A stretch of 64,000 bases of DNA from an uncultured virus (IMG/VR IMGVR_UViG_3300042549_007806) (Duplodnaviria > Heunggongvirae > Uroviricota > Caudoviricetes), in the IMG/VR virus record IMGVR_UViG_3300042549_007806; one strand, written 5' to 3'. Both the position numbers and the translations under genes were made by a program. The notes beneath the pieces were generated by a model that was not told the DNA's origin, made no database searches, and saw only the letters and a list, made by a program, of their open reading frames with translations. Shown here piece after piece: positions 1,524 to 56,879 of the stretch (positions are counted from its first letter, which is position 1; every line of letters begins with the position of its first letter).

Positions 1524-1530
1524 TTAAAAT

Positions 1531-1863
1531 ATGCCAGTTTTTAGATCCATACCTTCATTAAGAATTATTAATGGAAATCAAATTGAGACATCGGACTCCG
1601 CAGTAGTAATTAGTCAAGACTATACTACAAATGGTGAATATGTGATTGTTTATAAAGGTGAAGAAAATCACGAATTATATTTAAATCATAACAACACTGA
1701 CCATGTAGTTGTTAAATCATTAACCAAAGTTTTAGTAAAAACTGAAAGTTTAATTGATGAAGAGTTTAATGAAGTGGAACTTGATAAAGGGTCATGTGTT
1801 GAATTTAAATATATAAATGGTTTTTGGTATATACTTTCATCTGACGGTTTAAAAAATTCCTAA
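1531..1863 (+). CDS. Hypothetical beta-rich protein, possibly virion-associated
   Basis: 110 aa ORF co-oriented 7 nt after the neck gene. Confidence 0.5.
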   Translation: MPVFRSIPSLRIINGNQIETSDSAVVISQDYTTNGEYVIVYKGEENHELYLNHNNTDHVVVKSLTKVLVKTESLIDEEFNEVELDKGSCVEFKYINGFWYILSSDGLKNS

Positions 1864-12007: not shown

Positions 12008-12008
12008 A

Positions 12009-14483: not shown

Positions 14484-14487
14484 ACTT

Positions 14488-16675: not shown

Positions 16676-16687
16676 AAATTTTTTAAA

Positions 16688-18255: not shown

Positions 18256-18257
18256 AT

Positions 18258-19583
18258 ATGTGTAGTTTTATTTTCACAAACAAAGAAATCTCAGATGTAG
18301 ATTATGTTAATTTCTTTAATAAGTTTAGAGGTCCTGACAATACAAATGTTTTTGTTAAAAACGGATATTCATTTCTACACAACTTATTGAGTATAACCGG
18401 AGAATTTAAAACACAGCCATTTGTACAAGACAACATAATTTGTCTTTATAATGGTGAAATATATAACTATAAAGAATTTGGTGATTACAATTCAGATGGG
18501 GAATGTCTAATACCTCTATACATTAAAGACGGATACAACTTCATAAAAAAACTAGATGGAGAATTTGCTATAACTTTAGTAGATTTCAATAAAAACATAG
18601 TAATAATATCAACAGATACATTTAAAACTAAACCAATTTTTTATTCTTTAACTGACGGTATCGCAACATCATCATATAGTGACCCTTTAAAAAAATTAGG
18701 ATACACAAACATCTTAAAGATGGATCCAAACACAACTTTGATTGTCGACCTAAAAACAAGGACTCCATTGGAAAAAAGATTAGTTCATAATTTTGATGTG
18801 TCGAACCAAAACAAAGATACTTTTGAGGATTGGGTTAGTGCGTTTGAGAAATCAATTAAAAAAAGAACTAACGGAATTAGAGAAAAAATATTTATAGGTC
18901 TTAGTGGTGGTTATGATAGTGGGGCTATTTGTTGTGAATTACTAAACCAAAATGTAAAATTCAAATCATATACCGTAATCGGCACAGAAAACTCAAATAT
19001 TCTTAATCAGAGATTTTCATTACTAAATAATAATGAGCAACAATCTCTAACTAAAAACACTGATGAGATCAATGTTGCATACAATTATATAAAAAATAAT
19101 ACAGAAACATTTAAATTTGTTACCTATTCAAACTCAAGTGATTACAACGAATATTGGTTATCTTTAATTGATGATAATGGTGCAAAACATTTATCACATG
19201 TTTGTAGTAACGCAATTAAAGATGGAAAAAAAATTCTATTGTCTGGACAAGGTGCTGATGAAATTTTTTCAGATTATGGTTTTGGTGGTATTAAGAAATA
19301 TAACCACAGTAATTTTGGTGGACTTTTTCCTGAAGATTTAAAAAGCGTTTTTCCTTGGCCAAGTTTTTTTAATAGTTCGATGGAATCTTATTTGGCGAAA
19401 GAAGAGTATGTTGCTGGTTCATATGGAATTGAATCAAGGTACCCCTTTTTAGACTTAGAGGTTGTGCAAGAATTTCTTTGGTTGAAACCTGAATTAAAGA
19501 ATTCACATTATAAGTCAGTTCTTTATTATTATTTAAAAAAATATAACTTTCCATTTACGGAAAATGAAAAAATAGGATTCTAA
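18258..19583 (+). CDS. Asparagine synthetase-like glutamine amidotransferase
   Basis: N-terminal Cys (MCS), RGPD, NGEIYN, LSGGYDS, SGQGADEIF, RYPFLD. Confidence 0.85.
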   Translation: MCSFIFTNKEISDVDYVNFFNKFRGPDNTNVFVKNGYSFLHNLLSITGEFKTQPFVQDNIICLYNGEIYNYKEFGDYNSDGECLIPLYIKDGYNFIKKLDGEFAITLVDFNKNIVIISTDTFKTKPIFYSLTDGIATSSYSDPLKKLGYTNILKMDPNTTLIVDLKTRTPLEKRLVHNFDVSNQNKDTFEDWVSAFEKSIKKRTNGIREKIFIGLSGGYDSGAICCELLNQNVKFKSYTVIGTENSNILNQRFSLLNNNEQQSLTKNTDEINVAYNYIKNNTETFKFVTYSNSSDYNEYWLSLIDDNGAKHLSHVCSNAIKDGKKILLSGQGADEIFSDYGFGGIKKYNHSNFGGLFPEDLKSVFPWPSFFNSSMESYLAKEEYVAGSYGIESRYPFLDLEVVQEFLWLKPELKNSHYKSVLYYYLKKYNFPFTENEKIGF

Positions 19584-20227
19584 TGAAAATTAAAACTGTC
19601 GATATTTGCATTACAACCTACAATAGAAATGATAGGTTAATAGAGACCTTAGATATATTATCCAAACAAACCAACACGGATTTTAATCTAATAGTTAACG
19701 ATGACGGAAATAAAACAATTATAAACCCCAACGACCATCCGATCATTACAAAATATATTTGGAACAAAGATGATGGGTACCATAGAGTCGCCAGATTCAA
19801 TGAATCGGTTTCTTTATGTGTTTCTCCGTTCATAATTTTATTAGACGACGATTGTATTCCTGTGGATAGTAATTTTGTACAATCTCATGTTGATGTATTG
19901 AATACATCTGATGTTTGTAAGGGAAAAATTAGATTTCCAAATGGTGATTTAGCATCCGGATGGTTTAGTACCGCAAATTTAGGTATTAGAAAAAAGGTTA
20001 TTGACGAAATCGGTCTCTTTGATAATAATTTTGATGGTCACTATGGTCATGAAGATCAGGATTTAGGTAATAGACTCAATAAGGAGAACTATGTATCTTT
20101 TGATGGGTCAAATGGTACTATGGTTAATCATGGTACTGAGATGTACGCCAATGGGGATAGATCAGACAGTATTGTGGGACATAACACAAGATATTTTATA
20201 TCAAAATGGGGGTACGACCCTAGATAG
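19583..20227 (+). CDS. GT2 glycosyltransferase
   Basis: ITTYNR, NDDG, LDDDC, YGHEDQDLG. Confidence 0.85.
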   Translation: MKIKTVDICITTYNRNDRLIETLDILSKQTNTDFNLIVNDDGNKTIINPNDHPIITKYIWNKDDGYHRVARFNESVSLCVSPFIILLDDDCIPVDSNFVQSHVDVLNTSDVCKGKIRFPNGDLASGWFSTANLGIRKKVIDEIGLFDNNFDGHYGHEDQDLGNRLNKENYVSFDGSNGTMVNHGTEMYANGDRSDSIVGHNTRYFISKWGYDPR

Positions 20228-20236
20228 TTTTTTATA

Positions 20237-21067
20237 ATGAGTAATCTGATATTTTATTGTTCGGGAGGTTTGGGTAATAGGTTAAGCCCGTTTTTAAACA
20301 TAAAAAACATTTTTGATTATAATATTAAGTTGGTTTGGCCAAAAACCATGAGATTAATGTGTGATTTTCAAGATATTTTTGAAAATAAAAATATCGGGTC
20401 ACTTAGTTTTACCGAATTAGATAATTTAGTTGATGTTGAAAATTTTCATGGTAGTGAGGGTGGATTAATTGCGTCAGAATATGAATTCAAAATTAACTCC
20501 ATAGACTCTCTTTTGAATATGAGTAAAAGAAGTTTTCCTAAACCCGTACATTTATTTAATATTAATAATCTCAGTCACCAAAACACTATTGTTTTTTTTA
20601 ACGATCTTATTGGTCATGTCGATAAAGAAACCGTCAAAGAAAATTTTTTTAAGTTAAAACCTAAAAAAGAAATAATTGATAAAATAAATGATTTACAAAG
20701 TTATTTAGAAATAAATAAAGACACAGTAGGAATCCACGCAAGAGGTACAGATTTCATAAATGAAAAACTTGAATCGTACTTTCCTATAATAGATGAAGAA
20801 CTAAGAAATGGTAATAATATATTTTTTTGTTCCGACGACCCCGATTGGGAAAAAAATATAATTGTAAAATACCCAATGATCAAAGTGAGACCCCAAAAAA
20901 ATAATGTTTACAAATCTGATATTAATTCAAACTATTCTTGTAATGTTGTAACACCTTTAGACGCTACTATTGACGCATACATAGATATGGTATTACTGTC
21001 AAAAAGTAACTTTAAACATTTCAACCCTAAAAGTTCGTTCGCAAGGTTAGTAAACATAATTCAATAA
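20237..21067 (+). CDS. Fucosyltransferase-superfamily (NodZ/GT11-like) glycosyltransferase
   Basis: GGLGNRL, GIHARGTD, FCSDD, SSF. Confidence 0.65.
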   Translation: MSNLIFYCSGGLGNRLSPFLNIKNIFDYNIKLVWPKTMRLMCDFQDIFENKNIGSLSFTELDNLVDVENFHGSEGGLIASEYEFKINSIDSLLNMSKRSFPKPVHLFNINNLSHQNTIVFFNDLIGHVDKETVKENFFKLKPKKEIIDKINDLQSYLEINKDTVGIHARGTDFINEKLESYFPIIDEELRNGNNIFFCSDDPDWEKNIIVKYPMIKVRPQKNNVYKSDINSNYSCNVVTPLDATIDAYIDMVLLSKSNFKHFNPKSSFARLVNIIQ

Positions 21068-21148
21068 CTCTAAGTCAAATAGATAATACTTGTGTTTATT
21101 TTATGGGGTTTATATGTTATTTTGAAATAAAAAAATATACAGTAAAAT

Positions 21149-21913
21149 ATGAAATGTTTGACAATTAGTAGAGGTGAAGACGGGTTCGGATCGCAACTAT
21201 TTAGTATAATATCAGGTTTAGCATACTGCGACAAACACAAAATACCGTATAAACACTCCCCTATTCAAAACATAAAACTACTTAGTTCAAAAAATTTTCT
21301 TAACGAAGATTTAATTAGATCTAATGAGTTTGTATTTTCTATTATTAATAATATTGATATTTCTAAAACTGAGGATTTAGATTGTACGGTTAAACCATTC
21401 TGTCATGATTTAATTTATAATGAAGGTTCTGAAAATTATTTTACAGAAAACTTTTTAGAAAAAATTAAATCCTCACATACCTTTAACTTTGGAGGGGACC
21501 AAACCCGTACTATATCGATACACATCAGGCGTGGTGAAGATATTTTTGAGGAAGACAAACCTTATAGATGGATAGAAAGTGAAACATATCAAAAGTTGAT
21601 AGAATTTATTTTGGAAAAAGAATCTGATTGCAAAATAAAAATCTTCAGCTGGGGTGAGTCGGGAATCCAATTGAGTGACCCAAGAATTGAGTATTATACT
21701 TCTGATTCGGGTGGAAAATTTATGGGTGACTTTATAAAGATGGTGACTTCTGATATATTAATAGTGGGGTCAAGTACTTTTAGTATTTCTGCGGGATTTC
21801 TAAACAAGAACATGGTTTTATCACATACTAAATTAATGAAATTAAATAATACCCCCATACCAAGAATATGGGAAAATAACTTCAATACATATTTTAACGG
21901 TATTGATATATAA
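21149..21913 (+). CDS. Fucosyltransferase-superfamily glycosyltransferase
   Basis: DGFGSQL, IHIRRGED, SSTFS. Confidence 0.6.
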   Translation: MKCLTISRGEDGFGSQLFSIISGLAYCDKHKIPYKHSPIQNIKLLSSKNFLNEDLIRSNEFVFSIINNIDISKTEDLDCTVKPFCHDLIYNEGSENYFTENFLEKIKSSHTFNFGGDQTRTISIHIRRGEDIFEEDKPYRWIESETYQKLIEFILEKESDCKIKIFSWGESGIQLSDPRIEYYTSDSGGKFMGDFIKMVTSDILIVGSSTFSISAGFLNKNMVLSHTKLMKLNNTPIPRIWENNFNTYFNGIDI

Positions 21914-21932
21914 ACTTAATAAAAAACAAAAA

Positions 21933-22859
21933 ATGGGTAGGATATTAATTACAGGGTCTAATGGGTTAGTTGGTTCGGCATTAAGAAAACAACTAGGTGA
22001 CGATCATGTGTACCATACAAAAGAAGAGGTGGATCTTTTAGACTATAAAAAAACTCATGATTATTTTTCTTATCATGTAAAACATAGTAATGTGGATACA
22101 ATAATTCATTGTGCCGCAAAAGTCGGAGGTGTTCAAGCAAACCTATCCGATAATAAAGGATTTTTTATAGATAATTTCGTAATAAACAATAATGTGATGG
22201 AGACTTCATTTAGAAATGAAGTTCCCAACTTTGTGAATTTACTTTCGACTTGTATATTTCCTGAGAAAAACATAGAGTTTCCAATGAAACCTCAGGATGT
22301 TGACAAGGGTAAACCTCATCCATCAAACGAAGGTTATGCTTACGCTAAAAGATTAGCAGGATACGAAACAAACACTATTAAAAAGGTTCTTAAATCTAAT
22401 TGGGTTTCAGTTGTACCTACGAATGTATACGGAATACACGATAACTTCAACTTATTTGGTGGACATATGATTCCAGCTATGATCCATAGAGCGTATGAAT
22501 CAAAAAAAAATAAAGAAAAAATGATAATATGGGGCGATGGTTCACAATTAAGACAAGTAATTCATTCTGATGATTTAGCAAAATTAATTTTATGGTCATT
22601 AGATAATTGGAAAAGTGACTATCCCTTTATGGCGGTAAATCCGAATGAGCACTCAGTTTTGGAAATATCTAATTTAATTTGTGAAAACTTCAATATTTCG
22701 AAAGATGATATACTGTTTGATAACACAAAACCGACGGGTCAATTGAGGAAACCTGCAATTTCGGACGCACCTTCGAATTTTGAATTTACGACATTATCGG
22801 ATGGAATTAAAACAACAATAGATTGGTTTATTCAAAACTACGATAAATTAAGAAAATAA
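21933..22859 (+). CDS. GDP-fucose synthase / GDP-colitose synthase (ColC)-like epimerase-reductase
   Basis: GSNGLVG, AAKVGGV, LSTCIFP, YAYAKR, PTNVYG; ATG at 21933. Confidence 0.85.
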   Translation: MGRILITGSNGLVGSALRKQLGDDHVYHTKEEVDLLDYKKTHDYFSYHVKHSNVDTIIHCAAKVGGVQANLSDNKGFFIDNFVINNNVMETSFRNEVPNFVNLLSTCIFPEKNIEFPMKPQDVDKGKPHPSNEGYAYAKRLAGYETNTIKKVLKSNWVSVVPTNVYGIHDNFNLFGGHMIPAMIHRAYESKKNKEKMIIWGDGSQLRQVIHSDDLAKLILWSLDNWKSDYPFMAVNPNEHSVLEISNLICENFNISKDDILFDNTKPTGQLRKPAISDAPSNFEFTTLSDGIKTTIDWFIQNYDKLRK

Positions 22860-22865
22860 GACATT

Positions 22866-24020
22866 ATGAGTATAAAATTAGTAAGTGACACTATCAATAA
22901 AGAAGATATAAATTCTTTAATTGAGTGGTTAGGACAAGACGAGATTCCGAGACTAACAAAAGGAGATCTAACTTGGGAATTAGAATCTAAATGGGCGAAA
23001 AAAATAGGAACCAAATATTCGGTTTATCTTAATTCAGGTTCCTCCGCAATTCTTTTAGCGTTAGCGGCTTTACAACACACCAACAAATTAAAAAATAATA
23101 AAGTAATTGTACCAGGGTTAAGTTGGGCAACCGATGTTAGTTCACCTATGATATTAGGTATGGAACCAATTTTATGTGATTGTAATCTTGAGGATCTTTC
23201 TTGTGATTTAGATCACTTGGAAAAATTGTTTATTCAACATAACCCATCTACATTCATTTTAGTCTCACCATTAGGTTTAGTTCCTGATATGAAAAAAGTT
23301 CTTGACCTATGTGAGAAATACAATGTGATCCTACTGGAGGATGTATGCGAGAGCATGGGATCAAAGTATAATGAAAAATACCTCGGGTCTTTTGGCTTTG
23401 CATCATTTTTTTCGATGTATTTTGGACATCATTTAAGTACAATAGAGGGTGGGTTTATTAATACGGACGACGAAGATTTTTATTATTCATTATTGATGAT
23501 GAGAAGTCATGGTTGGGATAGAGACCTACCAAAAAGAATCCAAAATAAATTACGAAACGAAAATAAAATTAGCGAATTTGATTCACTATATACATTTTAT
23601 TTACCAGGATTTAATCTAAGATCAACGGATCTACAAGCGTTTATTGGGTTAAGAGCAATAGATAAATTAGATGACTATACTGAAAAAAGGAACAAAAATT
23701 TTCAATTGTATAAATCTTCAATAAATGTCAACCAACTGAATATAACAGATAGACCAACAGACTTTATTTCTAATTTTGCATATCCCATTGTAAATAAAAA
23801 TAGATTAAAAATCATCGAAAAACTTATTAAGGATAATATTGAAGTTAGGCCTTTAATTGCTGGTGATATGTCAAAAAAACCTATGTGGATTAAAAATTAT
23901 GGTGAGGTTAATTTACCTAATTGTCAATTGATCAATGAGTATGGGTTTTATATACCAAACCATCAGGATCTAACATCAGAACAAATAAATTTAATTTCAA
24001 ACATAGTAAATAATGAGTAA
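22866..24020 (+). CDS. colD: GDP-4-keto-6-deoxymannose 3-dehydratase (ColD-like, DegT fold)
   Basis: NSGSSA, EDVCESMG, YFGHHLSTIEGG (His in place of the PLP Lys), RSHGW, GFNLR. Confidence 0.75.
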   Translation: MSIKLVSDTINKEDINSLIEWLGQDEIPRLTKGDLTWELESKWAKKIGTKYSVYLNSGSSAILLALAALQHTNKLKNNKVIVPGLSWATDVSSPMILGMEPILCDCNLEDLSCDLDHLEKLFIQHNPSTFILVSPLGLVPDMKKVLDLCEKYNVILLEDVCESMGSKYNEKYLGSFGFASFFSMYFGHHLSTIEGGFINTDDEDFYYSLLMMRSHGWDRDLPKRIQNKLRNENKISEFDSLYTFYLPGFNLRSTDLQAFIGLRAIDKLDDYTEKRNKNFQLYKSSINVNQLNITDRPTDFISNFAYPIVNKNRLKIIEKLIKDNIEVRPLIAGDMSKKPMWIKNYGEVNLPNCQLINEYGFYIPNHQDLTSEQINLISNIVNNE

Positions 24021-24993
24021 AAAGATTGCATTAATAACAGGTATAAATGGTCAGGACGGATCTTACTTATCTGAGTTATTATTAGAAAAAGGATATGAAG
24101 TGCATGGCACATTAAAAAGAAACTCTGTTTCTGAAAATCAAACTTCTCGTTTGGATAATGTATTTGACAAATTAATATTGCATTACGCAGACTTAACGGA
24201 TTTATCATCACTAATAAGAGTTATTAGTGAAATTAAACCCGATGAGGTTTATAATTTAGCAGCACAATCGCATGTTAGAATTTCTTTCGATCAACCGATA
24301 TACACTGCAAATGTTACGGGGTTAGGTACTCTGAATATTTTAGAAGCGGTTAAACTTGTAAATCCTGAAATTAAAATTTATCAAGCATCTTCATCCGAGA
24401 TGTTCGGTAATTCAATAGATAAGGATGGACTTCAAAGAGAAACAACACCGATGAATCCAGTTTCACCTTATGGTTGTGCCAAAGTATTCTCATATAATAT
24501 TTGTAGAAATTATAGAAACGCATATAACATGAAAATATGGAATGGTATTTTATTTAACCATGAGTCACCAAGAAGAGGTACAAATTTTGTAACAAATAAA
24601 GTGGTTAAGGCGGCAGTTAGAATCAGTTTAGGTCTACAAGAAAAATTACACATAGGTAATTTAGAAGCATCCAGAGATTGGGGTCATGCTAAAGATTATG
24701 TTGAAGCTATGTGGTTAATGTTACAATCGGACAACCCTAATGATTATGTGTGTGCGACAGGAGTTTCACACACGGTAAAAGATTTATGTGAGTATACCTT
24801 TAGTACTTTAGGTTTAGAATATAAAGATTATGTTGTTATTGACGAGAAACACTTTAGGCCCGAAGAACTTGAAAATCTTAAGGGGGACTCTTCAAAATTA
24901 ACAAATGATTTAGGTTGGAAACCAAAATACACTTTTGAATCTATGTTAGATGAAATGATTGAGTATTGGTTAAACTACTATAAAAACAAATAA
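24013..24993 (+). CDS. gmd: GDP-mannose 4,6-dehydratase
   Basis: ITGINGQDGSYL, LAAQSHV, QASSSEMFG, SPYGCAK, FNHESPRRG, RDWGHAKDYV. Confidence 0.95.
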   Translation: MSKKIALITGINGQDGSYLSELLLEKGYEVHGTLKRNSVSENQTSRLDNVFDKLILHYADLTDLSSLIRVISEIKPDEVYNLAAQSHVRISFDQPIYTANVTGLGTLNILEAVKLVNPEIKIYQASSSEMFGNSIDKDGLQRETTPMNPVSPYGCAKVFSYNICRNYRNAYNMKIWNGILFNHESPRRGTNFVTNKVVKAAVRISLGLQEKLHIGNLEASRDWGHAKDYVEAMWLMLQSDNPNDYVCATGVSHTVKDLCEYTFSTLGLEYKDYVVIDEKHFRPEELENLKGDSSKLTNDLGWKPKYTFESMLDEMIEYWLNYYKNK

Positions 24994-34933: not shown

Positions 34934-35401
34934 ATGGGCAACATAGAAAGAATAATAAGAAAAGTATTAAATGAAGATCATAGAATGAACAATTCAAGAT
35001 ACATGTTTTTTTCTAATTTACAACAGATGAGAAGACAATGTGATCTATTGTTAGATTTAGACCCAAACATGGTGGAGAGTATTTTAGAAAATGGTCACGA
35101 TTGGGCCCAAGATCATATCGCAGAGGCTAAAAACAACATGGATCAAGTTTTTGATTTTTTGATGAATGAATCAAAAAAAGATGGTATGGAACTTTCTATG
35201 AATATCGATGACGAGGATATGATGATGATTGAGGGTAGAAAAAAAACAGGGACTAAACTTTGTGCAAGAGGTAAGTCGGCAGCTAAAGCAAAATATGATG
35301 TGTATCCTTCAGCTTATGCCAATGGGTACGCAATACAAGTATGTAAAGGAAAAATAAAAGGACTTGATGGTCAAAAAAGATGTTCAGGAACTTATTGTTA
35401 A
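34934..35401 (+). CDS. Hypothetical protein with YPSAYANG motif
   Basis: N-terminal IERIIRKVLNE leader-like segment; C-terminal CARGK..AKAKYDVYPSAYANGYAIQVCKG. Confidence 0.55.
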   Translation: MGNIERIIRKVLNEDHRMNNSRYMFFSNLQQMRRQCDLLLDLDPNMVESILENGHDWAQDHIAEAKNNMDQVFDFLMNESKKDGMELSMNIDDEDMMMIEGRKKTGTKLCARGKSAAKAKYDVYPSAYANGYAIQVCKGKIKGLDGQKRCSGTYC

Positions 35402-36193: not shown

Positions 36194-38020
36194 TTATCTC
36201 AATTCTCTTAAGTCAAATGTTCTAACTCCATCAACTGTGATTCTACCATAGAAACGGTTGTTAACCATTTTCTTAGCGTATCTTGTCATGATACCTTTGA
36301 TTGGTGTAAAGTTGAATGGGTTATACATTGTAGGTGTTAATTGTAGAGGTACATACGGTGCGTAAACATAACCAGTGTCTAACAATGATGTTCCTTTGTG
36401 ACCCAACAATACTGTGTTTGGTGGGAAGTAAGGATCACGGTAAACTTGGTAACGACCAGCTAATGTACCAACTCTTTCAATACCCATGTTGTATTGATCT
36501 TGCTCCGGTGAAGCGTTAGATACATGGAAGTATTCTAAGTCATCAAAAATAGCTGAAATTTCAGAAGAAACTACGATCCAGTTAGCTCCACCTCTCAAAG
36601 TAGATTTGTGGATTTGTGCCGAAATTTGGTTAATCGCAGTGATTAATGTTTGGTTCCAGTCTTTTTGAGTGTACTGAGTTAATGGATTTGCAGTAGTACC
36701 TCTTTTCCATCCGTTGTAATCCCAACGAAGTGTCCAAGCTGCGCCTTTTCTCAAATCACGAAGAATTTCACGATCAATTTCTGCCGCCACTTGCTCAGAT
36801 AATAAAGCTGTTAATTCAGCTTCAGCATCGATATTGTGGAATGCAGATACATCTTGAGCTAATTCAGGAGACCATTGTGCTCTTAGTTTTCTTTCTGTAA
36901 CAGATACAGTAACTGACTCAAGGTCAAAAGATACTTCACCGATCTCATCTTCGAATTCCAATTCTTTGTATCTTCTGAATGTACATGTAAACGCAGCTCC
37001 TGCAGTGGCAAGACCAGTAATTGGTAAAGTGAACCCTGAATATCCGTCAATTGAACCTGTACCGATAGTTGCAGGAACTTGTAGATCCAACTCTAAATAG
37101 ATGATACCATCTTGTGAACAAAGGTTATCATAAGAACCTCCGTTACCTGTAGATGACCAAGTTGTATTTGCTTGTGTACCATATTGTACAATACCTTTAC
37201 CATATTTTTGAGTAACAACTCTGAAAAGAATATCACTAGTACCTAAACCTGAGAAACCATTAACACCCGCTTGTACAGCATTTACTTGTAAGTCAGATAA
37301 GAATGCTTCATTATCCATTTCCTGACCATCAGGTCCAATTAATTTACCAGCACCCGCATTAGAGAAACCTGATAAACCGATTAATACTTTTCTGTACTCA
37401 CCTGCTGAATAACCAGAAGACACTAAATTGTAACCATTCCAAACTACAGTGCCAACAGCACTTGAAGTAATTGCCGTATAAGCTCCTTTTGAATAGTCAA
37501 ATAAACCTGCAGGATCTAATCCTGGCTCATTTCCTTCATAGAATAAGTCATACAAGTTAGTACCACCGTATGTACTAGTTGATCCGTAACCTTGTCCTTG
37601 AGTTGCAGTAGCATCACCTACTAAAGTAGCGGGTGAACCAAGTGGTGGAAAGTGTTGTATTTGGTTATTAGCTGCCGCTTGGTAACCTTGGATTTTAGGT
37701 ACAAAGTAGAACAATTTACCGATAGGTAAGTTCATTGCTTGTACAGATACTAAATCATTAGCTAACAATTTAGAGAATACGCGTCTTACGATAGGGAAAA
37801 CTACAGTTTCGAATGAACCTGAGCTATCAGTTGAAGCCGCTTCGTTAATAAGGTGAGATGCTTGGTTCTCATATAATTGAGCCATGTTCTCTTTAATGTG
37901 TCCTTTAAGACCATCTAGGAATCCTAATTTATCCCATTTGTTAATTGTATCTTCTTTGATAACTTTAAGGTGTTTCAACCCGATGTTACCAACAAGACCT
38001 GATTCTAATAATGCTCCCAT
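36194..38020 (-). CDS. Major capsid protein, T4 gp23-like
   Basis: PIVRRVF..LLANDLVSVQAM, RKLRAQWSPELAQD, EIDREI, YAPYVPL, FTPIKGIMTRYA. Confidence 0.93.
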   Translation of the reverse strand: MGALLESGLVGNIGLKHLKVIKEDTINKWDKLGFLDGLKGHIKENMAQLYENQASHLINEAASTDSSGSFETVVFPIVRRVFSKLLANDLVSVQAMNLPIGKLFYFVPKIQGYQAAANNQIQHFPPLGSPATLVGDATATQGQGYGSTSTYGGTNLYDLFYEGNEPGLDPAGLFDYSKGAYTAITSSAVGTVVWNGYNLVSSGYSAGEYRKVLIGLSGFSNAGAGKLIGPDGQEMDNEAFLSDLQVNAVQAGVNGFSGLGTSDILFRVVTQKYGKGIVQYGTQANTTWSSTGNGGSYDNLCSQDGIIYLELDLQVPATIGTGSIDGYSGFTLPITGLATAGAAFTCTFRRYKELEFEDEIGEVSFDLESVTVSVTERKLRAQWSPELAQDVSAFHNIDAEAELTALLSEQVAAEIDREILRDLRKGAAWTLRWDYNGWKRGTTANPLTQYTQKDWNQTLITAINQISAQIHKSTLRGGANWIVVSSEISAIFDDLEYFHVSNASPEQDQYNMGIERVGTLAGRYQVYRDPYFPPNTVLLGHKGTSLLDTGYVYAPYVPLQLTPTMYNPFNFTPIKGIMTRYAKKMVNNRFYGRITVDGVRTFDLRELR

Positions 38021-39958: not shown

Positions 39959-40666
39959 TTATTTTAAATAATCGGTCAATCTTTTCATTAAGTCAACAGA
40001 TTTCTCTAAACCACTACCTGAAAAATTACTTTTATCATGTTCGGCAAGTTTTTCTTCATACTTTGGTCGGTCTTCCTTGTTTAAGTAAAGGTAAGCTCCT
40101 GGCGTTGACGGTGAAGAAACAAGATCAAAACAAATTAATTCAAAATCATCCTGTACTTCATTTTGCTCACCTTTTTTTACCAAAGAACCAACACCACGAG
40201 AAGATACACCCATAGTAACACCCTGTCTCATCATGTTTGCTGCAACATCTCCTTTGGATGACACTATACCTCTTTCGTGAAAACCTGGAGTGGTTAATAA
40301 TTTAATCTTACCCATTAAAACATTGTTTTCCCACCATATGTCAGTAATAAGATGTGATACTCTATCTAAGTCAATTAATGAAGACTCAGGATGGTTTAAT
40401 TCAGAAATCGACATCCCTTTATTAATAAGTTCTTTATACTTATCAGCCTCTCTTCTTAATATGTTTTCAGGATAAACCCTACCGTTTCTGTTAGGTACTC
40501 CGTGTTTTTGTAATGTCGCATAGAACACAAAAGGTTTTGAGTGTTCTAACTGTCCGTAAGATTCTTTTATTATATCGGTATTTCTCTCATCATTTGGATT
40601 GATGAATCCAGCATCCCATTCTACAAGTATTCCTTTACCACTATCATTCGGTCCTAAAATTTTCAT
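39959..40666 (-). CDS. Prohead protease, T4 gp21-like
   Basis: NRNGRVYP, ELNHP, RVSH, GVSSRGVGS, DLVSSPS. Confidence 0.92.
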   Translation of the reverse strand: MKILGPNDSGKGILVEWDAGFINPNDERNTDIIKESYGQLEHSKPFVFYATLQKHGVPNRNGRVYPENILRREADKYKELINKGMSISELNHPESSLIDLDRVSHLITDIWWENNVLMGKIKLLTTPGFHERGIVSSKGDVAANMMRQGVTMGVSSRGVGSLVKKGEQNEVQDDFELICFDLVSSPSTPGAYLYLNKEDRPKYEEKLAEHDKSNFSGSGLEKSVDLMKRLTDYLK

Positions 40667-41429: not shown

Positions 41430-41666
41430 TTATTTGTTGTCACCTTTTTTGTGTGTAAAGAAATCGACTGAAGTCAAACCTAAACACCCAAAGGCCAACA
41501 GACCTACAGCATCCACCAAAGTTGATGATGGTTCGTATTTTCCACAACTAAACATAGATATAAATAATCCTACAATTAGGGATAATCCACAAAGAAGACC
41601 AATAAACCTTTTAGAGGAAATCCCCCCATTTGCCCCTTCCATCATTGATTTAAAAAACCTAATCAT
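41430..41666 (-). CDS. Small two-helix membrane protein, holin-like
   Basis: ISSKRFIG followed by two hydrophobic segments and a charged C-terminus. Confidence 0.5.
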   Translation of the reverse strand: MIRFFKSMMEGANGGISSKRFIGLLCGLSLIVGLFISMFSCGKYEPSSTLVDAVGLLAFGCLGLTSVDFFTHKKGDNK

Positions 41667-42394
41667 AATCCTTGACTTAAACCCCTCAACTTATAAAGAT
41701 TGAATCTATCATAAGGTGATTCATTAATTTTTTTGATTGTATTTTCTATTGTTGATTTTAAATCAGATTCTGTCGATTCGTTCAAAGTAGATTTCAAATT
41801 AGAAATAACATTTTCTTTAAGTTGGTCCATTTCGGTTTTGATTTCTTCATCCGACATAGATGACAACTCCTCTATAACTTTTCTTTCTGATTCTGAAATA
41901 TTTTTTAATTCCAATTTAATATTTTCTTCAGCAACCTTAACCATTGTTGAAATTGGTAAGTTAACGCTTTCTATTATATCTTCTTTCTTTTCTTCTAAAA
42001 TAATATTAGACTTAATTTTTCTTTTAGATTCTAAAACCGTGGATAGGTCTTTGATTGATTTCTTATATATCGTATTATCAATATCCTTGTATTCATTAGT
42101 ATGTTCCAATACAATAGAATCAATCCAATTACTTACCTTTGTAATATGTTTTGAATTACCTTCAACTAAAATTTGAGAATACTCAACAGTTTCATTTATG
42201 TAATCTTCGGCGATAGATTCATTAATACCCTTGTTAGAAGATAAATCATCGTAGATATAATATAACTCAGCAATGTCTTTGTTTTCTAAAACCATTGATT
42301 TAAATTGTTTCAAAAAAGATTTAAATTCAGGTTTTCCGTATAAACCGATAGATGCTTTTTCTATTTTTGTTTTTATAGTGCCAAAAGTGTTCAT
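41663..42394 (-). CDS. Hypothetical head-module protein
   Basis: 243 aa helical, downstream of portal, late motif at 42407-42414. Confidence 0.55.
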   Translation of the reverse strand: MNTFGTIKTKIEKASIGLYGKPEFKSFLKQFKSMVLENKDIAELYYIYDDLSSNKGINESIAEDYINETVEYSQILVEGNSKHITKVSNWIDSIVLEHTNEYKDIDNTIYKKSIKDLSTVLESKRKIKSNIILEEKKEDIIESVNLPISTMVKVAEENIKLELKNISESERKVIEELSSMSDEEIKTEMDQLKENVISNLKSTLNESTESDLKSTIENTIKKINESPYDRFNLYKLRGLSQGL

Positions 42395-49932: not shown

Positions 49933-51969
49933 ATGATAGAATCCGTAGACGAAAACGAAAAACCAAAAAACAAACCTAAAGATAGTTCCTCAAAAACCCC
50001 CGTATTAGATAATTTCTCAAGAGATCTAATTAAGGCGGCAGAAGAAGGGAAGTTGGACCCTGTGATAGGGAGAGAAAACGAGATCAATAGGATTGCTCAA
50101 ATTTTATCAAGGAGAAAGAAAAACAATCCAATTATTTTAGGGGAACCGGGTTGTGGTAAAACTGCAATTGTTGAGGGACTTGCAAAAAAGATTTTTGAAG
50201 GTGATTGTCCTCAAAATTTAGCAAACAAAAGAATAGTATCGTTAGATATGACATCAGTTGTGGCAGGGACAAAATATAGAGGTCAGTTTGAAGAGAGGAT
50301 GAAGGTTATAATGGAAGAATTATATGGAAATCCCGATATTATAATTTTTATTGATGAAATACATACTATGATTGGTGCTGGTAATTCATCAGGTTCTATG
50401 GATGCGTCAAACATATTTAAACCCGCACTTTCAAGAGGGGAACTTCAATGTATTGGGGCGACAACTTTAGACGAATACAGAAAAAATATTGAGAAGGATG
50501 GGGCATTAGAAAGAAGATTCCAAAAAGTTATTGTTGACGCATCAACAAAAGAAGAAACATTACTAATTCTTCAACAATCCAAAGAAAGTTATGAAAATTA
50601 CCACAAAGTAATTTATAGTGATGATATTATGAAACTTTGTGTGGAGTTAGCCGATAGATATATTACTGATCGTGAATTTCCAGATAAGGCATTTGATATT
50701 ATTGATGAGGTTGGGGCAAGATCTCAAGTGGAAGTAAAACTTCCTGAAATTATTGAGGACTTGAAAAAAGAAGCTTTGAAAATCAAAGAAGAAAAGTTAG
50801 ATGTCATCAACAAACAAAAGTATGAGGAGGCGGCTAATTTACGAGACAAAGAAAGAAAAGTTCTTGCCGAATTAGAAAATGAGAAACAAAAATTCGAAAA
50901 GAATCGTGACATGTTTAAAAGAGAAGTGACTGAAGATGTCGTTTATGATGTAGTTTCTTTAATGACAAAAATTCCTGTGAATAAAATATCTACAGATGAA
51001 ACACAACAACTTATTTCTTTAAAAGAAAATTTGAACACAAAAGTTATTGGTCAGGATGATGCTGTAAGTAAAATAGCAAGGGCAATTCAGAGAAATAAAG
51101 TTGGTTTAAACGATCCGAAAAAACCTATTTTCAGTGGTCTGTTAATTGGTAATTCGGGAGTCGGGAAAACAGAACTCGCAAAACAATTGGCAAAACATAT
51201 GTTTAACAGTGAAGACGCTTTAATCCGTTTAGACATGAGTGAGTTTTCAGATAAAATTTCAACATCCAAATTGACGGGAACATCACCAGGTTATGTGGGG
51301 TTTGAAGAGGGCTCACCATTTTTGAATAAAATCAAAAACAAGCCATACTCTGTAATTCTATTAGATGAAATAGAAAAGGCACATTCCGATATATTCAATG
51401 TTTTTTTACAGATGTTGGATGAGGGTATGTTAACAGACGGTCATGGGAGAAAAATAAATTTTAAAAATTGTATTATTCTAATGACTTCTAATGTGGGAAC
51501 TAAGGTTGTACAAGATTTTGGGACGGGTGTCGGTTTTTCAACAACGGCAAAAACTGAAAGAAAAGACGATGAGATCAAAACACTTTTGGAAAAAGAGCTA
51601 TTCAAAAAATTCCCGCCTGAGTTTATCAATAGATTTGATGATATAGTTTATTTCAAAGACCTTAATAAAGAGGATTTGTTAAAAATTGTTGATTTAGAAC
51701 TTAATAAATTCTACGAAAGAATTTCTAAGTTAGAGTTTTCTGTAGATGTCGATGAGACACTAAAAAAACATCTAATAGAAGTCGGAATGGATACTCGTTT
51801 TGGGGCTAGAATACTTAAAAGAACCGTACAGAAATGGATTGATGATGCAATCACTGAAAAAATCCTTACAGATAACCCAGAAAAAGGATCAAAGTTTGTT
51901 CTTACTTATAACGAGAAGGAAAAGAAAACTGATGTTAAAATAAAAAAACCAATTAAAAGAAAAAAATAA
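49933..51969 (+). CDS. clpC: ClpC-like AAA+ ATPase lacking the N-terminal domain
   Basis: [13 protein letters not shown] and [19 protein letters not shown]-like [12 protein letters not shown] loop, GYVG pore loop. Confidence 0.88.
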
Positions 51970-51970
51970 T

Positions 51971-52001
51971 TTTGCAAATGTTAAAAACTTTTGTACATTT
52001 G
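51971..52001 (+). promoter_or_regulatory. Bacteroidota primary-sigma promoter
   Basis: TTTG-N19-TACATTTG. Confidence 0.75.
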
Positions 52002-52014
52002 TAAAAAAACAGCA

Positions 52015-53067
52015 ATGAACATAGAAAAATTTAAAGAGCTCCTTTCAGTCCCAAGCAAGACATATCAAGAAGAAGATATGGTAGAGTTTATTTGTGACGA
52101 GTTGGGGGATATGGAAGGGGTTACTTTCTATCGTGATGTAATGATGAACATCTACGCGACAAAAGGTGTGTTAGAGGAAGGTGAATTTTACCCTATGTTT
52201 ATTGCTCACACAGATACAGTACACAGTAAGATTGAAAAAATAGTAGTTAAAGAAGAAAAACTTGCTCGACCTTACACTTTTGGTAAATCCTTTGACAACA
52301 CACCAGTTGATGTATTAAAGGCTTATGACACTAACGGTAACCCAACAGGTATTGGTGGTGATGACAAGTGTGGTATTTTTATTTGTTTAGAGTTACTAAA
52401 ACAATTAGACAAAGTAAAAATTGGTTTTTTTGTTTCAGAAGAAACAGGATGTCACGGTTCATCAAAATGTGATGAAAACTTTTTACAGAATGTTGGTTAT
52501 ATCACTCAATATGACGCACCTGGTAATCACTTAATTACCGAGATTTGCTCGGGAGTTCGTTTGTTTGAAAGGGAGAGTGAGTTCTTTGAAAAAACATTAG
52601 AAGTTATTACGGAATCTTTTGGTAATGAAATGTTAGTTCAATCTCACCCTTACACCGACATTTCACAACTAAAAAAGAAAATCAATGTTTCTTGCATTAA
52701 CATGTCTTGTGGTTATTACAATATGCACTCAGTTCAAGAGTTTGTATCCTTAGACGATGTAAAAAATGCGATTGAAGCAGGAAAGAAGATGGTTGCAGTA
52801 TTGGGACTTAAAAAATACACATACGAATATGCTCCTATCAAATATACTCCTCAATTAATAATGAATTCACTTGTGGAAGATTTAGATGAAGAAGTTTTTG
52901 ATTACCCTGAAGAAACTTTTCATCGTTTAGGGAGTATAGACGCATATGAAGAAAAAGATGGTATCACATTAAGTGACGCTTATGACGATGGATTTTTATT
53001 TATCCCCGATGAGGATTTAGTAAGTCTTTATGAAATTATTAAAGAAAGATTGATTAAAAAGTATTAA
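52015..53067 (+). CDS. M20/M28-like zinc peptidase
   Basis: AHTDTV, GGDDKCG, SEETG, GYYNMHS; ATG at 52015. Confidence 0.8.
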   Translation: MNIEKFKELLSVPSKTYQEEDMVEFICDELGDMEGVTFYRDVMMNIYATKGVLEEGEFYPMFIAHTDTVHSKIEKIVVKEEKLARPYTFGKSFDNTPVDVLKAYDTNGNPTGIGGDDKCGIFICLELLKQLDKVKIGFFVSEETGCHGSSKCDENFLQNVGYITQYDAPGNHLITEICSGVRLFERESEFFEKTLEVITESFGNEMLVQSHPYTDISQLKKKINVSCINMSCGYYNMHSVQEFVSLDDVKNAIEAGKKMVAVLGLKKYTYEYAPIKYTPQLIMNSLVEDLDEEVFDYPEETFHRLGSIDAYEEKDGITLSDAYDDGFLFIPDEDLVSLYEIIKERLIKKY

Positions 53068-54212: not shown

Positions 54213-54301
54213 ATATAAATAAATATATTATTAACAACATATATTAAAAAAAAATATTATATTTGTATCTAATCTCAACATTCTAAAACCCCATTTTAAC
54301 C

Positions 54302-54742
54302 ATGCAAAAATTTTCTATAACTCTATTAATTTTTTTATCATCTTTTTTTTCAATTTCACAAGTTATTACGGTTGAATTTGAAAAAACTAAATTTTTTATT
54401 TCTGAAGGTAGAATATCACCAAAGGATTTATTACTCGATACCTCCTCGATGTATGCAAGTGAGCCAAGTAAGTATAAAAAAGTTTTTGATTTAGATAGTA
54501 ATATTTGTAAATTTTATATTAATGATTCTCTTCAGAGTTCTTTAAGTATAACCAAAGTCGAAAAGATTGAAGGAAGTTTAATTAAATTAACCTTTATTGA
54601 AAAAGATTTAAGAGACGGATTCCCTCTAGTTACCCATCAATTTGTAAGTGATACAATATGTTATTATTATTGGTATTGGGGAGGTCAGGATAACTTATCT
54701 AATTTAATTTTAGAAGAGGTAAGTAGTATATCTATAAAATAA
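54302..54742 (+). CDS. Exported protein A1 (signal peptide)
   Basis: MQKFSITLLIFLSSFFSIS-Q signal peptide; TATATTTG -7 box at 54258-54265. Confidence 0.7.
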   Translation: MQKFSITLLIFLSSFFSISQVITVEFEKTKFFISEGRISPKDLLLDTSSMYASEPSKYKKVFDLDSNICKFYINDSLQSSLSITKVEKIEGSLIKLTFIEKDLRDGFPLVTHQFVSDTICYYYWYWGGQDNLSNLILEEVSSISIK

Positions 54743-54769
54743 AAAAAGGTGGGTATACCCACCTTTTTT
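54742..54769. terminator. Bidirectional intrinsic terminator
   Basis: Perfect palindrome AAAAAAGGTGGGTA/TACCCACCTTTTTT. Confidence 0.85.
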
Positions 54770-54789
54770 ATTAAATTAATTTAAAGTCT

Positions 54790-55143
54790 TTAACAATCGG
54801 ATTTAAGGGTCCCCTTCCAATTAGGGTGATTTAAAGTTAGTTGAGAAACCACCATGGAAGAAATAGGTTGATTACTTTCATCCACTATCTGACCAGTTTT
54901 ACATGAATAAGTATAATCTTTTCCACTTCTATCATTTATCCATCCTAAATCTTGACTCCACTGTTTTAAATCAAACCCGACTCCGTCGGCACCATTGTTT
55001 CCAGTATTAGCAATACGCATTCCTTTTCTATTTTTTTCCGCAGCTACAGAATATTGCGCCCAATCCATCACTTCTTGTTCGTTGATTACTCTGGATACGA
55101 TTCTTTTCAAGTCACTTTCAGTTAATCTTACAATTTTACTCAT
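54790..55143 (-). CDS. LTESDL-leader protein B1
   Basis: MSKIVRLTESDLKRIVSRVINEQ plus a 2-Cys domain; TACTTAT variant motif at 55181-55188. Confidence 0.7.
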   Translation of the reverse strand: MSKIVRLTESDLKRIVSRVINEQEVMDWAQYSVAAEKNRKGMRIANTGNNGADGVGFDLKQWSQDLGWINDRSGKDYTYSCKTGQIVDESNQPISSMVVSQLTLNHPNWKGTLKSDC

Positions 55144-55215
55144 AATTAATATTTTAATATAATTTTATTTACTATATTCTATAAGTATATTGTTTTAAGT
55201 AAAAAAATTAATTAA

Positions 55216-55247
55216 TTTGATTTTTTAGGATATAATATTTATATTTG
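55216..55247 (+). promoter_or_regulatory. tmRNA promoter: Bacteroidota -33/-7 with overlapping late motif
   Basis: TTTG-N20-TATATTTG; ATATTTATA at 55235-55243. Confidence 0.65.
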
Positions 55248-55283
55248 TATTATTATTCTTTGAAGTAGTCAATTAAGATATAT

Positions 55284-55701
55284 GGGCCTATATTGGATTT
55301 GACGGGCGTTGGTTGAATAAAAGAAGCATGTCGGGACTGAATTAATCTCGTTAAAAACTGATTCGAACAACAACTGGCAATGTGCTAAACAACCTTGAGA
55401 CTTTGGGACTTATCTCAACTCAAGAAGTTACTGTAGCTTAATTTAAGTACGGAAACGGGGGGTCGGTGGATACATAACCTAGCAACAGAAATCCTTAAGG
55501 TGTGGTTTCTACCCAAAAAGAAACAAACGGTCTCGTTCAGAGGTCTACCGTAACAAAAGTGAACTCGACACAGTTTTTGGTAACGATGTTAAAATAGGAA
55601 CCAAATATTTTGGAAGGTATGAAAAACCTTATCCTAAACATGTAGTTGTCTCTTAGACAAGACGAGCCGGACGAGGGAGTCGGAGCCCTCTAGGTCCACC
55701 A
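55284..55701 (+). ncRNA. ssrA: tmRNA
   Basis: 5' GGGCCTA-TATTGGATTTGAC; 3' GGAC-GAGGG..CCCTC-TAGGTCC-ACCA with G3-U wobble; GCATG/CATGT pairing; tag ORF 55376-55441. Confidence 0.9.
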
Positions 55702-55705
55702 ATTA

Positions 55706-55740
55706 ATCCCATCATTTAATTATGGTGGGATATTTTTTTT
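55706..55740 (+). terminator. Terminator after tmRNA
   Basis: ATCCCATCAT-ttaatt-ATGGTGGGAT then T run. Confidence 0.75.
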
Positions 55741-55759
55741 AAAATATTTTTAAAAGTGT

Positions 55760-55789
55760 TTTGCAAATCAAAAAAAGGTCTTATCTTTG
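55760..55789 (+). promoter_or_regulatory. Bacteroidota primary-sigma promoter
   Basis: TTTG-N18-TATCTTTG. Confidence 0.65.
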
Positions 55790-55826
55790 TAGTGTAATCA
55801 TTCATAAACCCTTTAAACCAAATAAC

Positions 55827-56270
55827 ATGAAAAATTTATTGACCTTAGTTTTCGCATTATTCTCAACAATTACTGTTTTCTCTCAAGCAAATTTGAACTT
55901 CCATACTTTGGGTGGTTTTGATTATTTTGACATTACAAATAAAAATATCAATCCTGAGGATCTTTTAAAGGGTAAGACTGTGGGTCAAGTTCTACAATCA
56001 GATGGATTTAATCTTTACGAGATCAACTTAGATAAAAAAACATTGACCCACAATTATATTACTTTGGAATCGGGATCAAAAGACCGTAAAGAAGTGGTAT
56101 ACAAGATTACAAATTTGGAAGATGAGACATACTTTACAAAATTTGATGTTGTGACTGAAGATTTTGGTACGATGACTTTTGTAATTAATAAAATGAAATC
56201 AACAAACAAAGATTTGATTGTAGTCTTCAAAGATAATAACCGTACTTACGCGGCAGTAGTAAATATGTAA
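55827..56270 (+). CDS. Exported protein A2 (signal peptide), distant paralog of A1
   Basis: ATG 55827: MKNLLTLVFALFSTITVFS-Q; INPEDLL...INLD vs ISPKDLL...FDLD in A1. Confidence 0.7.
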   Translation: MKNLLTLVFALFSTITVFSQANLNFHTLGGFDYFDITNKNINPEDLLKGKTVGQVLQSDGFNLYEINLDKKTLTHNYITLESGSKDRKEVVYKITNLEDETYFTKFDVVTEDFGTMTFVINKMKSTNKDLIVVFKDNNRTYAAVVNM

Positions 56271-56280
56271 TATTACCCAA

Positions 56281-56315
56281 AACAAAAAAACCCTCTTTTC
56301 GGAGGGTTTTTTGTT
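56281..56315. terminator. Bidirectional intrinsic terminator
   Basis: AACAAAAAAACCCTC-ttttcg-GAGGGTTTTTTGTT. Confidence 0.85.
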
Positions 56316-56330
56316 CAATTAGTTTTTTAA

Positions 56331-56804
56331 TTATTTTGACATTGATAATGCTTTTTTAGCATCTCCAATGTAATTTACAGCATTTCCTGCAGTTGGTGAA
56401 CTAGGTTGACCTTTAGATTGACAAAAATTTCTAACCATTTTATCTACTACACTACCTCTTCCAAAAACATAAGTACTACCACCTTCGAAAACATCCGCAG
56501 AACTTCTTGGACTTAATGCCCCTGGATTGGCGCTAGGACCACATGCGGCATAAAGAACAATGTTTCCTTTTGTTACAGGAGATCCATTATCTTTGATTCT
56601 AACTCCGTTGAATTTAACCTGAGCAGTCACTGTTCCCTTGTAACCTGAACCACCAGCGATAGTTGGTTGAGAAAGTACAATAGCGTAATCTTGCATATCA
56701 CGACTATATCCAGCATCAATAACAGCTGGTGTAGTTTGTTCCTCGATTACTCTTTTTACGATATTAACTAAATCGGATTCAGTTAGTCTAACAATTTTTT
56801 TCAT
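56331..56804 (-). CDS. LTESDL-leader protein B2
   Basis: MKKIVRLTESDLVNIVKRVIEEQ plus a 2-Cys domain; late motif at 56846-56853. Confidence 0.7.
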   Translation of the reverse strand: MKKIVRLTESDLVNIVKRVIEEQTTPAVIDAGYSRDMQDYAIVLSQPTIAGGSGYKGTVTAQVKFNGVRIKDNGSPVTKGNIVLYAACGPSANPGALSPRSSADVFEGGSTYVFGRGSVVDKMVRNFCQSKGQPSSPTAGNAVNYIGDAKKALSMSK

Positions 56805-56879
56805 AATTTTTTTTTATTCTAAGTTAATTTTATTATCTTTACCATATAAATATATCACTTTTTCAAAAAAATTAATTTT

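Follow-up and report, generated by a model that had tools for sequence, protein, structure and literature searches.

What do two small pairs of convergent genes contribute to a phage that carries them on either side of its transfer-messenger RNA (tmRNA)? The question is raised by a stretch of 64,000 nt (the window, by which we mean this whole stretch) of the uncultured virus record IMGVR_UViG_3300042549_007806 (IMG/VR; Caudoviricetes). On each flank of the tmRNA, a plus-strand gene (A) for a protein that looks exported faces a minus-strand gene (B), whose product opens with a nearly constant leader and continues into a divergent domain, here called the cargo. A reading made from the letters of this DNA, hereafter the sequence-only reading, had seen in the two cassettes a candidate virion effector with its partner. 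The layout that it described was borne out: the same architecture occurs twice, once on each side of the tmRNA, and we could confirm the open reading frames (ORFs) with their coordinates, the bidirectional terminators, the tmRNA and two classes of promoter boxes. We found that the leader belongs to a large family of N-terminal peptides, whose reality we regard as virtually certain, and that a subset of its genes recurrently faces a convergent gene of exported type. Within the literature and databases searched, the family, its breadth and the exported partner of this subset appear to be undescribed. A conserved address on variable internal proteins is already known from phage T4, and we lean, by a modest degree, towards seeing in the leader a T4-like capsid-targeting, head-loading propeptide.

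The first cassette consists of A1 (54302..54742, plus strand; 146 aa), a near-orphan with a signal-peptide-like N-terminus ending in SIS/Q (the slash marks the putative junction), and B1 (54790..55143, minus strand; 117 aa), in which the leader (residues 1-23, bases 55075-55143; leader profile 57 bits) precedes a cargo with two cysteines. The bidirectional hairpin terminator between them (54742..54769) has 12 pairs, 5 GC, and T-runs on both sides. In the second cassette, A2 (55827..56270, plus strand; 147 aa from its ATG), with a signal peptide ending in VFS/Q and a predicted all-beta, calycin-like barrel, faces B2 (56331..56804, minus strand; 157 aa), which joins the leader (bases 56736-56804; leader profile 61.4 bits) to a beta-rich cargo with invariant C88 and C128; here too a bidirectional hairpin terminator with T-runs on both sides separates the genes (56285..56312). 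No Pfam or PHROG family was found for A1, B1, A2 or B2.

A leader shared by unrelated proteins

B1 and B2 are identical at 18 of their 23 N-terminal residues, and the remainder has no convincing alignment. The near-identical opening noticed in the sequence-only reading thus stands, as do the two cysteines in each cargo, C88 and C128 of B2 being invariant in two alignments, of 11 and of 14 B2 relatives; the cargos themselves do not align. The leader has the consensus M-K-K-I-V-R-L-T-E-S-D-L-x-R-I-V-K-R-V-I-x-E, 22 residues that are predicted to form a conserved amphipathic helix. In an alignment of 24 leaders, M1, K3, L7, E9, D11, L12 and E22 are invariant, and the mean column identity is 74%. 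With a leader hidden Markov model of 24 rows, we detected two copies in the present record, 11 in each of two complete relatives of ~321 kb, and seven and five in two partial ones. Scans of IMG/VR with B1 or B2 returned 45 loci in which the shared N-terminus stands on proteins of 73-245 aa with unrelated remainders, and a metagenome scan gave at least 638 stretches matching the leader pattern, at least 501 of them confirmed. The cargos behind the leader are unrelated from gene to gene (67-457 aa, 167 distinct proteins). Leader codons vary synonymously, position 7, for example, being written with four different Leu codons. Since the codons vary freely at synonymous sites, the peptide itself is under selection; the same variation led us to reject the idea that the conservation is that of an RNA or DNA element. 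Neither Pfam nor PHROG has a model for the leader, and a full-text literature search with a six-letter leader motif returned no match.

The conservation of the leader has a sharp edge. Residues [LIVM]-x-E occupy positions 20-22 in 165 of 167 distinct leaders. With positions 20 and 22 fixed, position 21 unconstrained and conservation falling away beyond residue 23, the leader has the form of a removable peptide that would end in a P3-x-P1 cleavage site. A second candidate site, L7-T8-E9, was part of the search pattern that defined the 167 leaders (L-T-E at 7-9) and is therefore not independent there; in a separate alignment, L7 and E9 are invariant (24/24). In the structural model of B2 (predicted local distance difference test, pLDDT, 87.1), the leader is a separate helix of lower confidence, spanning residues 9-22.

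Such a peptide has a counterpart in T4, whose prohead protease cleaves behind Glu. As described in PMC5694885, every internal head protein of that phage uses an N-terminal capsid-targeting sequence (CTS) to reach the core, and Alt is processed at ITE-6 and LTE-619. Processing of the CTS is described as governed by its residues 8 and 10 (PMC9026906), and the internal proteins as diverse, with the CTS alone conserved (PMC3012670). The window encodes a T4-type prohead protease (Peptidase_S77; 39959-40666, minus strand; PF03420, 78 bits), which we presume to be the processing enzyme, and a Gp23-type major capsid protein (36194-38020, minus strand; PF07068, 208 bits), which has five [LI]xE sites in residues 1-60 against three in the other 548. 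Peptidase_S77 is also present in 15 of the 27 other leader-bearing viral records, including both of the complete ones; the other 12 have a completeness of 11-55%. Leader genes and a Gp23 gene share one contig in a single-cell assembly labelled Prochlorococcus, and an alphaproteobacterial metagenome-assembled genome (MAG) with leader genes also holds the protease. The sequence-only reading had B loaded into the head. The T4-protease-type sites of the leader, the S77 and Gp23 genes and a phage-specific promoter motif all fit this proposal, and it is from these that we infer packaging.

The leader resembles the CTS of IPI, IPII, IPIII and Alt in being a short N-terminal peptide, present in multiple copies on unrelated, fast-changing small proteins and ending in [L/I]-x-E (as described in PMC3012670, PMC9026906 and PMC5694885), and in occurring in a phage with Gp23-type capsid and S77 protease genes. 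It differs in its length, 22 residues with two candidate sites as compared with 10 in T4, and in the much larger size of its family, with 11 members per genome and at least 501 in metagenomes. Moreover, some of the cargos here bind peptidoglycan and a subset has an exported partner. The likeness proposed here is one of layout and site motif. A shorter variant of the leader, MKKxIRLTESDLHxI[IV]KESV...[LI]xE (profile positions 1-17), occurs in gut Bacteroidales, Prevotella and Bacilli assemblies (L051, L052, L056, L057, L058); the proposition that all leader-bearing DNA is T4-like was not upheld for the gut MAGs.

A third family member in the window (34934..35401, plus strand; 155 aa) adjoins the capsid gene, has a degenerate half-leader (MGNIERIIRKVLNED) and carries the promoter motif at -48. 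Its orthologues in the two complete relatives, G020 and G023, have a full leader, and its C-terminal part matches phrog_27331. Between the portal and protease genes, a 243-aa ORF (41663-42394, minus strand) contains 13 [LI]xE sites, about four times the proteome rate, and a stretch, STESDLKSTIENTIKKINE, that resembles the leader; its product possibly belongs to the prohead core and is what the leader imitates. Other repeated N-terminal openings were seen on small ORFs (MKYLITESQ..., MKIIITE.Q..., MNLNENISRVKELMG...; L007, L010, L027, L032, L043, L137, L141). They lie in long arrays on one strand, adjoining leader genes, and possibly represent additional leader families that have an [IL]-T-E site.

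Putative exported partners and their recurrence

A1 and A2 both begin with hydrophobic, signal-peptide-like N-termini that end in S-Q. In Bacteroidetes, a Gln directly after the signal peptide is described as the Q-rule (PMC5837995). The feature is present in A1 (SIS/Q) and A2 (VFS/Q), as the sequence-only reading had proposed, and a Q comes right after the hydrophobic stretch in 12 of 16 partner proteins. By these marks, the A proteins look exported. The same reading had also described the cassettes as paralogous, with an I[SN]P[KE]DLL...[FI][DN]LD motif shared by A1 and A2, and the paralogy of these two we could not uphold. BLASTP between the two gave just an out-of-register match of 43 residues (E = 0.002) and the 14-residue match of ISPKDLL to INPEDLL (E = 0.033), hhalign with two small profiles returned a probability of about 1% (E = 0.056), and, with the A2 profile, a full HMMER search of 1.84 billion representatives gave 12 proteins at E <= 0.001, among which neither A1 nor its relative P0006 was identified. 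As these searches gave no link, A1 and A2 are not demonstrably paralogous. A1 has one relative (95% identical) among 5.8 billion clusters. The model of A2 is an all-beta barrel (pLDDT 73.9, from a six-sequence alignment), and its Foldseek matches are LolA, lipocalins and fatty-acid-binding proteins, with modest TM-scores of 0.3-0.43. The ESM Atlas look-alikes of A1 are unnamed proteins of ~150 aa from Bacteroidota and phages, with lipocalin-like clusters as weak leads. It is possible that A1 and A2 share a lipocalin-like fold class.

A search for co-occurring, co-varying cassettes in related phages, which the sequence-only reading had suggested as a check, was positive, both in the recurrence of pairs and in the matching clusters of their members. 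Relatives share a conserved frame of peptidase, 382-aa ORF, slot 1, tmRNA, slot 2 and denV. In this phage and in L002/L003, L059, L060 and L062, slot 2 is occupied by a pair of the A2/B2 type; L075 and L134 have a very different pair there. The flanks of L075 are 72-85% identical to this phage; its pair is just 26-30% identical to A2/B2, and this over part of the length. Slot 1 is occupied by A1/B1 here, is empty in L002/L003 and contains another pair in L108, while denV and a 302-aa ORF in the slot come and go between relatives. Pairs also occur elsewhere: one of the A2/B2 type in another context (L061), unrelated ones away from any tmRNA (L085, L092, L093, L103, L105, L124), and further ones beside the capsid gene of G020 and at one more site in G023. 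The same architecture turns up again in relatives, built from unrelated sequences, so that its repetition goes beyond chance. Among the IMG/VR loci, a convergent exported partner was found just in this phage and in one relative (L002/L003); in the metagenomes, a full-length B2-type protein (37-49% identical) is encoded at four loci, each of which has a convergent A2-type gene (34-55%) directly behind.

We quantified this pairing with our own ORF calls, counting a neighbour as exported when its N-terminus, of signal-peptide or membrane type, reached a hydrophobicity score of at least 2.0, which is a crude measure. A downstream neighbour within 300 nt was called for 130 distinct leader genes; it is convergent in 27 cases, and in 17 of these 27 it is of exported type. 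For 601 other genes, 137 neighbours are convergent, 14 of them of exported type. The difference is large (odds ratio 15, p = 1.6e-8, in a test that ignores relatedness), and roughly one in eight leader genes has a convergent gene of exported type opposite it. All-against-all BLASTP of 16 pairs resulted in A clusters and B clusters that match one to one (one of five, two of two and seven singletons); two larger clusters are joined by a weak match in the A set and in the B set, through different members. The pairs thus make up at least nine unrelated sequence families, and the partner proteins, leaving aside a rhomboid protease discussed below, measure 114-179 aa. We lean slightly towards a functional coupling of A and B, as far as gene content can indicate it; that A binds B is a more doubtful proposition. 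Complex prediction for mature A2 (residues 20-147, 15 sequences) with the B2 cargo (residues 24-157, 14 sequences), run with no controls, scored 0.00 against a mark of 0.32 and counts neither way.

Some of the cargos carry recognisable domains. LysM scored above the Pfam cut-off in two leader proteins (L013, L023), and PG_binding_1 (54 bits) was found in the paired 370-aa B protein of L092; the best PDB sequence matches of the latter, covering that domain only, are the phiKZ endolysin gp144 (E = 2e-5) and a lytic transglycosylase. Cysteines are frequent in paired cargos: 11 of 16 have exactly two, and 12 of 16 have at least two, compared with 54 of 151 unpaired cargos (p = 0.005, relatedness not corrected). 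For the B2 cargo, we obtained no Foldseek match in the PDB at E <= 0.001, and a best Z of 3.2 with VIA-align against 48,161 chains. None of the ESM Atlas look-alikes of B1 rose above chance level, and Pfam scans, which covered B1, B2 and 43 entries for leader proteins of other loci (30 + 13), showed no toxin family. Judging from the peptidoglycan-binding domains and the cysteine pairs, at least part of the leader family should act in the cell envelope. Since the cargos suit work outside the cytoplasm and yet have no export signal, travel in the virion would reconcile the two. The envelope destination put forward in the sequence-only reading is consistent with the peptidoglycan-binding cargos of other leader proteins and with the paired cysteines; from these we infer delivery.

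Promoters, tmRNA and the phage

The two genes of a pair stand behind different promoter boxes. The 8-mer TATTTATA is the top enriched one upstream of genes (21 observed versus 1.3 expected). It precedes B2 (56845..56852, minus strand, 48 nt upstream) and the first genes, at 48-50 kb, of a minus-strand block whose later members include terminase, portal, protease and capsid. Because it fronts this block, it is probably a late promoter; its reverse complement is TATAAATA, which we take to be the T4 late consensus. In several relatives, the motif comes after the terminator of a same-strand gene, so that its sense orientation appears to be the working one. B1 has TACTTATA, one mismatch from TATTTATA, 44 nt upstream (55180..55187, minus strand); both B sites can be written TA[TC]TTATA, at -44 and -48. 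On the plus strand, A1 follows TATATTTG, a Bacteroidota-type -7 element 44 nt upstream (54258..54265), and A2 a promoter at 55760..55789, composed of TTTG (55760-55763) and TATCTTTG (55782-55789), so that the TAnnTTTG boxes lie at -44 and -45. Across the paired genes, TAnnTTTG is found before 15 of 16 A genes, and TATTTATA or a close variant (TATTTAT[AT]) before 13 of 16 B genes. As its promoter is of the host Bacteroidota type, A is probably made early. B2 and denV diverge from a gap of 75 nt (56805-56879), in which the same 8-mer reads TATTTATA towards B2 and, on the plus strand, TATAAATA towards denV, 28 nt before it; this element (56845..56852) could serve either gene.

The phage-encoded tmRNA that anchors the conserved slot (55284..55701, plus strand) matches the whole Rfam model RF00023 (positions 1-374) with 71.5 bits, the gathering score being 47; it was not detected by ARAGORN. 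Matches with 74-80% nucleotide identity that span most of the gene or all of it come from L002, L003, L059, L060, L075 and L134, and partial ones from L062, L096 and L108. Read from the Rfam alignment, its tag would have ~21 residues and end in T-V-A instead of the usual L-A-A. A hairpin search placed a terminator 3' of the tmRNA (55706..55731, plus strand). tmRNAs are mentioned for huge phages (PMC7162821).

The window is part of a single viral record of 166,385 bp (G+C 32.5%), which CheckV estimates to be 57% complete. Related records indicate a genome of ~300 kb, and the two complete relatives measure 321 and 322 kb. Portal, terminase and an acidic scaffold-like protein are encoded in the same minus-strand block as the protease and capsid genes. 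The phage is a member of a T4-like, Bacteroidota clade with genomes of roughly 300 kb. Its closest cultured capsid proteins are ~42% identical, Flavobacterium phages among them; with these, the host-type promoter boxes and the S/Q signal-peptide junctions point to a Bacteroidota host. We found no DNA relatives, near or distant, among deposited phages. Just upstream of the cassettes (49933-53067, plus strand) lie an FtsH-like ATP-dependent protease (phrog_4871, 742 bits) and an M20/M42-like peptidase, each behind TAnnTTTG. Farther away, a same-strand run of glycosyltransferases, nucleotide-sugar epimerases and one aminotransferase (10077-24990, plus strand) adjoins dUTPase and exonuclease genes, and suggests sugar modification of DNA or of a surface structure.

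What the pairs may do

We tentatively propose, giving the complete chain somewhat less than an even chance, that B is a virion-delivered cargo acting on the envelope and A its cognate, early, periplasmic partner, in the manner of T4 gp5 and Spackle. B would be made late, from the clade's own motif TATTTATA, and its leader would bring the cargo into the prohead's scaffolding core, as the T4 CTS does. A T4-type prohead protease would then trim the leader after E9, after E22 or after both, and the cargo would ride in the head until its release at the next infection. A would be made early, from its host-type promoter, and exported through the Sec pathway as a small beta-barrel into the periplasm of the infected cell. 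There it would neutralise the matching B of later-arriving phages, resulting in superinfection exclusion or immunity. Spackle, which T4 makes early and which resides in the periplasm, is described as an inhibitor that binds the gp5 lysozyme domain (PMC7677548). What we propose for A and B is of this kind: a small, early periplasmic protein with a signal peptide, set against a virion-borne component active on the envelope. Unlike the proposed B, gp5 is located in the baseplate and not in the head; furthermore, B2 has no detectable lysozyme-like fold and A no Pfam match. In T4, sp and gene 5 are not known to be adjacent or to form polymorphic cassettes.

A broader version of this proposal would make the pairs a polymorphic system among these phages, in which a universal 22-residue head-loading tag would allow any small domain to be packaged and injected into the next host's envelope, and each envelope-active effector would come with its own early exported blocker as an antidote against that of kin or competitors, a phage-phage analogue of bacterial polymorphic toxins and their immunity proteins. 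Peptidoglycan-targeting effectors of the type VI secretion system, which are delivered by a contractile injection device, pair with periplasmic immunity proteins that have a signal peptide. The two systems are alike in joining a constant delivery module to a variable cargo, and in the adjacent, co-varying partner with its signal peptide. They differ in that the genes here are convergent, the promoter classes unequal and the carrier viral, and in that no toxin domain was recognised. We regard this version as rather unlikely.

Several observations weigh against a head-delivered cargo with a cognate periplasmic partner. The internal proteins of T4 enter the cytoplasm with the DNA, so that delivery to the periplasm is an extra assumption. 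The presumed late timing of TATTTATA comes from its position only. The recurrence of pairs speaks for effector and partner, as the sequence-only reading had them, and yet 113 of 130 leader genes are without an exported convergent partner, many of them in same-strand arrays, and the export calls depend on the crude score given above. In slot 2 of L096, the leader gene faces a rhomboid intramembrane protease (965-1549, minus strand; Pfam, 50.9 bits) and not a small soluble exported protein. Adjacent genes are co-inherited, and matched clustering alone is no proof of interaction. In the Pfam scans and the B2 fold searches, B1 and B2 showed no recognisable enzymatic domain and B2 no lysozyme-like fold, and the A proteins belong to no Pfam or PHROG family. 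A tblastn search of the cultured phages in INPHARED with B2 and the leader protein of L050 gave no relevant match, the sole one at E <= 1 being an unrelated tail-fibre protein (E = 0.9). Finally, four of the assemblies with the variant leader, three gut Bacteroidales-type MAGs and one Bacilli MAG (L051, L052, L056, L057), yielded no Peptidase_S77, and the three of them that were also searched for Gp23 (L051, L052, L056) none of that either; the variant genes in gut MAGs stand in ordinary chromosomal or mobile-element surroundings.

The main rival accepts B as a head-loaded internal protein and denies that A is its partner. Boundaries between opposed transcription units, the tmRNA slots above all, would collect accessory genes, the early ones among them often exported, and the matched families would be a matter of linkage. 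That most leader genes have no exported partner fits such a process, and the turnover of denV and of the 302-aa ORF in the slot, the rhomboid protease as one of the partners and the lack of sequence relationship between A1 and A2 point the same way, as does the history that adjacent genes share by default. Against linkage stand the finding that exported partners are in excess specifically beside leader genes (17 of 27 versus 14 of 137 convergent neighbours) and the pairing that recurs in at least nine unrelated families, also outside the tmRNA slot (L061, L085, L092, L093, L103, L105, L124, G020 and G023), with partners uniform in size (114-179 aa) and in promoter type. We consider linkage unlikely, if a serious contender.

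Two further explanations concern the leader and the site of action of B. The leader could be a docking or oligomerising helix, which fastens variable binding domains onto the tail, the baseplate or the capsid surface, or binds a conserved host factor, its glutamates serving the helix interface. The predicted helix at residues 9-22, with its heptad-like hydrophobic spacing, the variant in gut MAGs without T4-type head genes and the LysM and PG_binding cargos, which also suit the decoration of a surface or a tail tip, are all compatible with this. A cleavable propeptide, by contrast, predicts the fixed P3 and P1, the free P2 and the abrupt end after E22 (165 of 167), none of which an interface requires; the propeptide region of the capsid protein is rich in the same motif, and the LTE and ITE sites described for T4 are an exact precedent (PMC5694885). 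A docking helix thus seems improbable to us. Alternatively, B might belong to lysis control, reaching the wall through holin lesions as an accessory of the endolysin, while exported A modulates B or the timing of lysis from the periplasm. The T4 antiholin RI is a model for periplasmic control of lysis timing; LysM and PG_binding_1 are modules typical of endolysins, the latter matching the phiKZ endolysin in the L092 protein, and B genes look late where A genes look early. Against this, 11 such genes per genome with unrelated cargos far exceed the needs of lysis, the pairs showed no recognisable catalytic domain, holin or spanin, and the conserved leader is left without a role. We hold this explanation to be very improbable.

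For the biology of these phages, much depends on the leader. If it is a head-loading tag, it marks a very large and easily recognised set of proteins that Bacteroidota phages bring with them at infection, with 11 members in each complete genome and hundreds in metagenome data. In that case, it would also lend itself to the loading of foreign proteins into these phages, a purpose that the T4 CTS has already served. With the paired subset, there is a directly testable set of cognate, fast-diversifying phage proteins, and these may decide whether a phage enters a cell that is already infected; if true, this would extend the single example of T4 Spackle and gp5 to a modular system.

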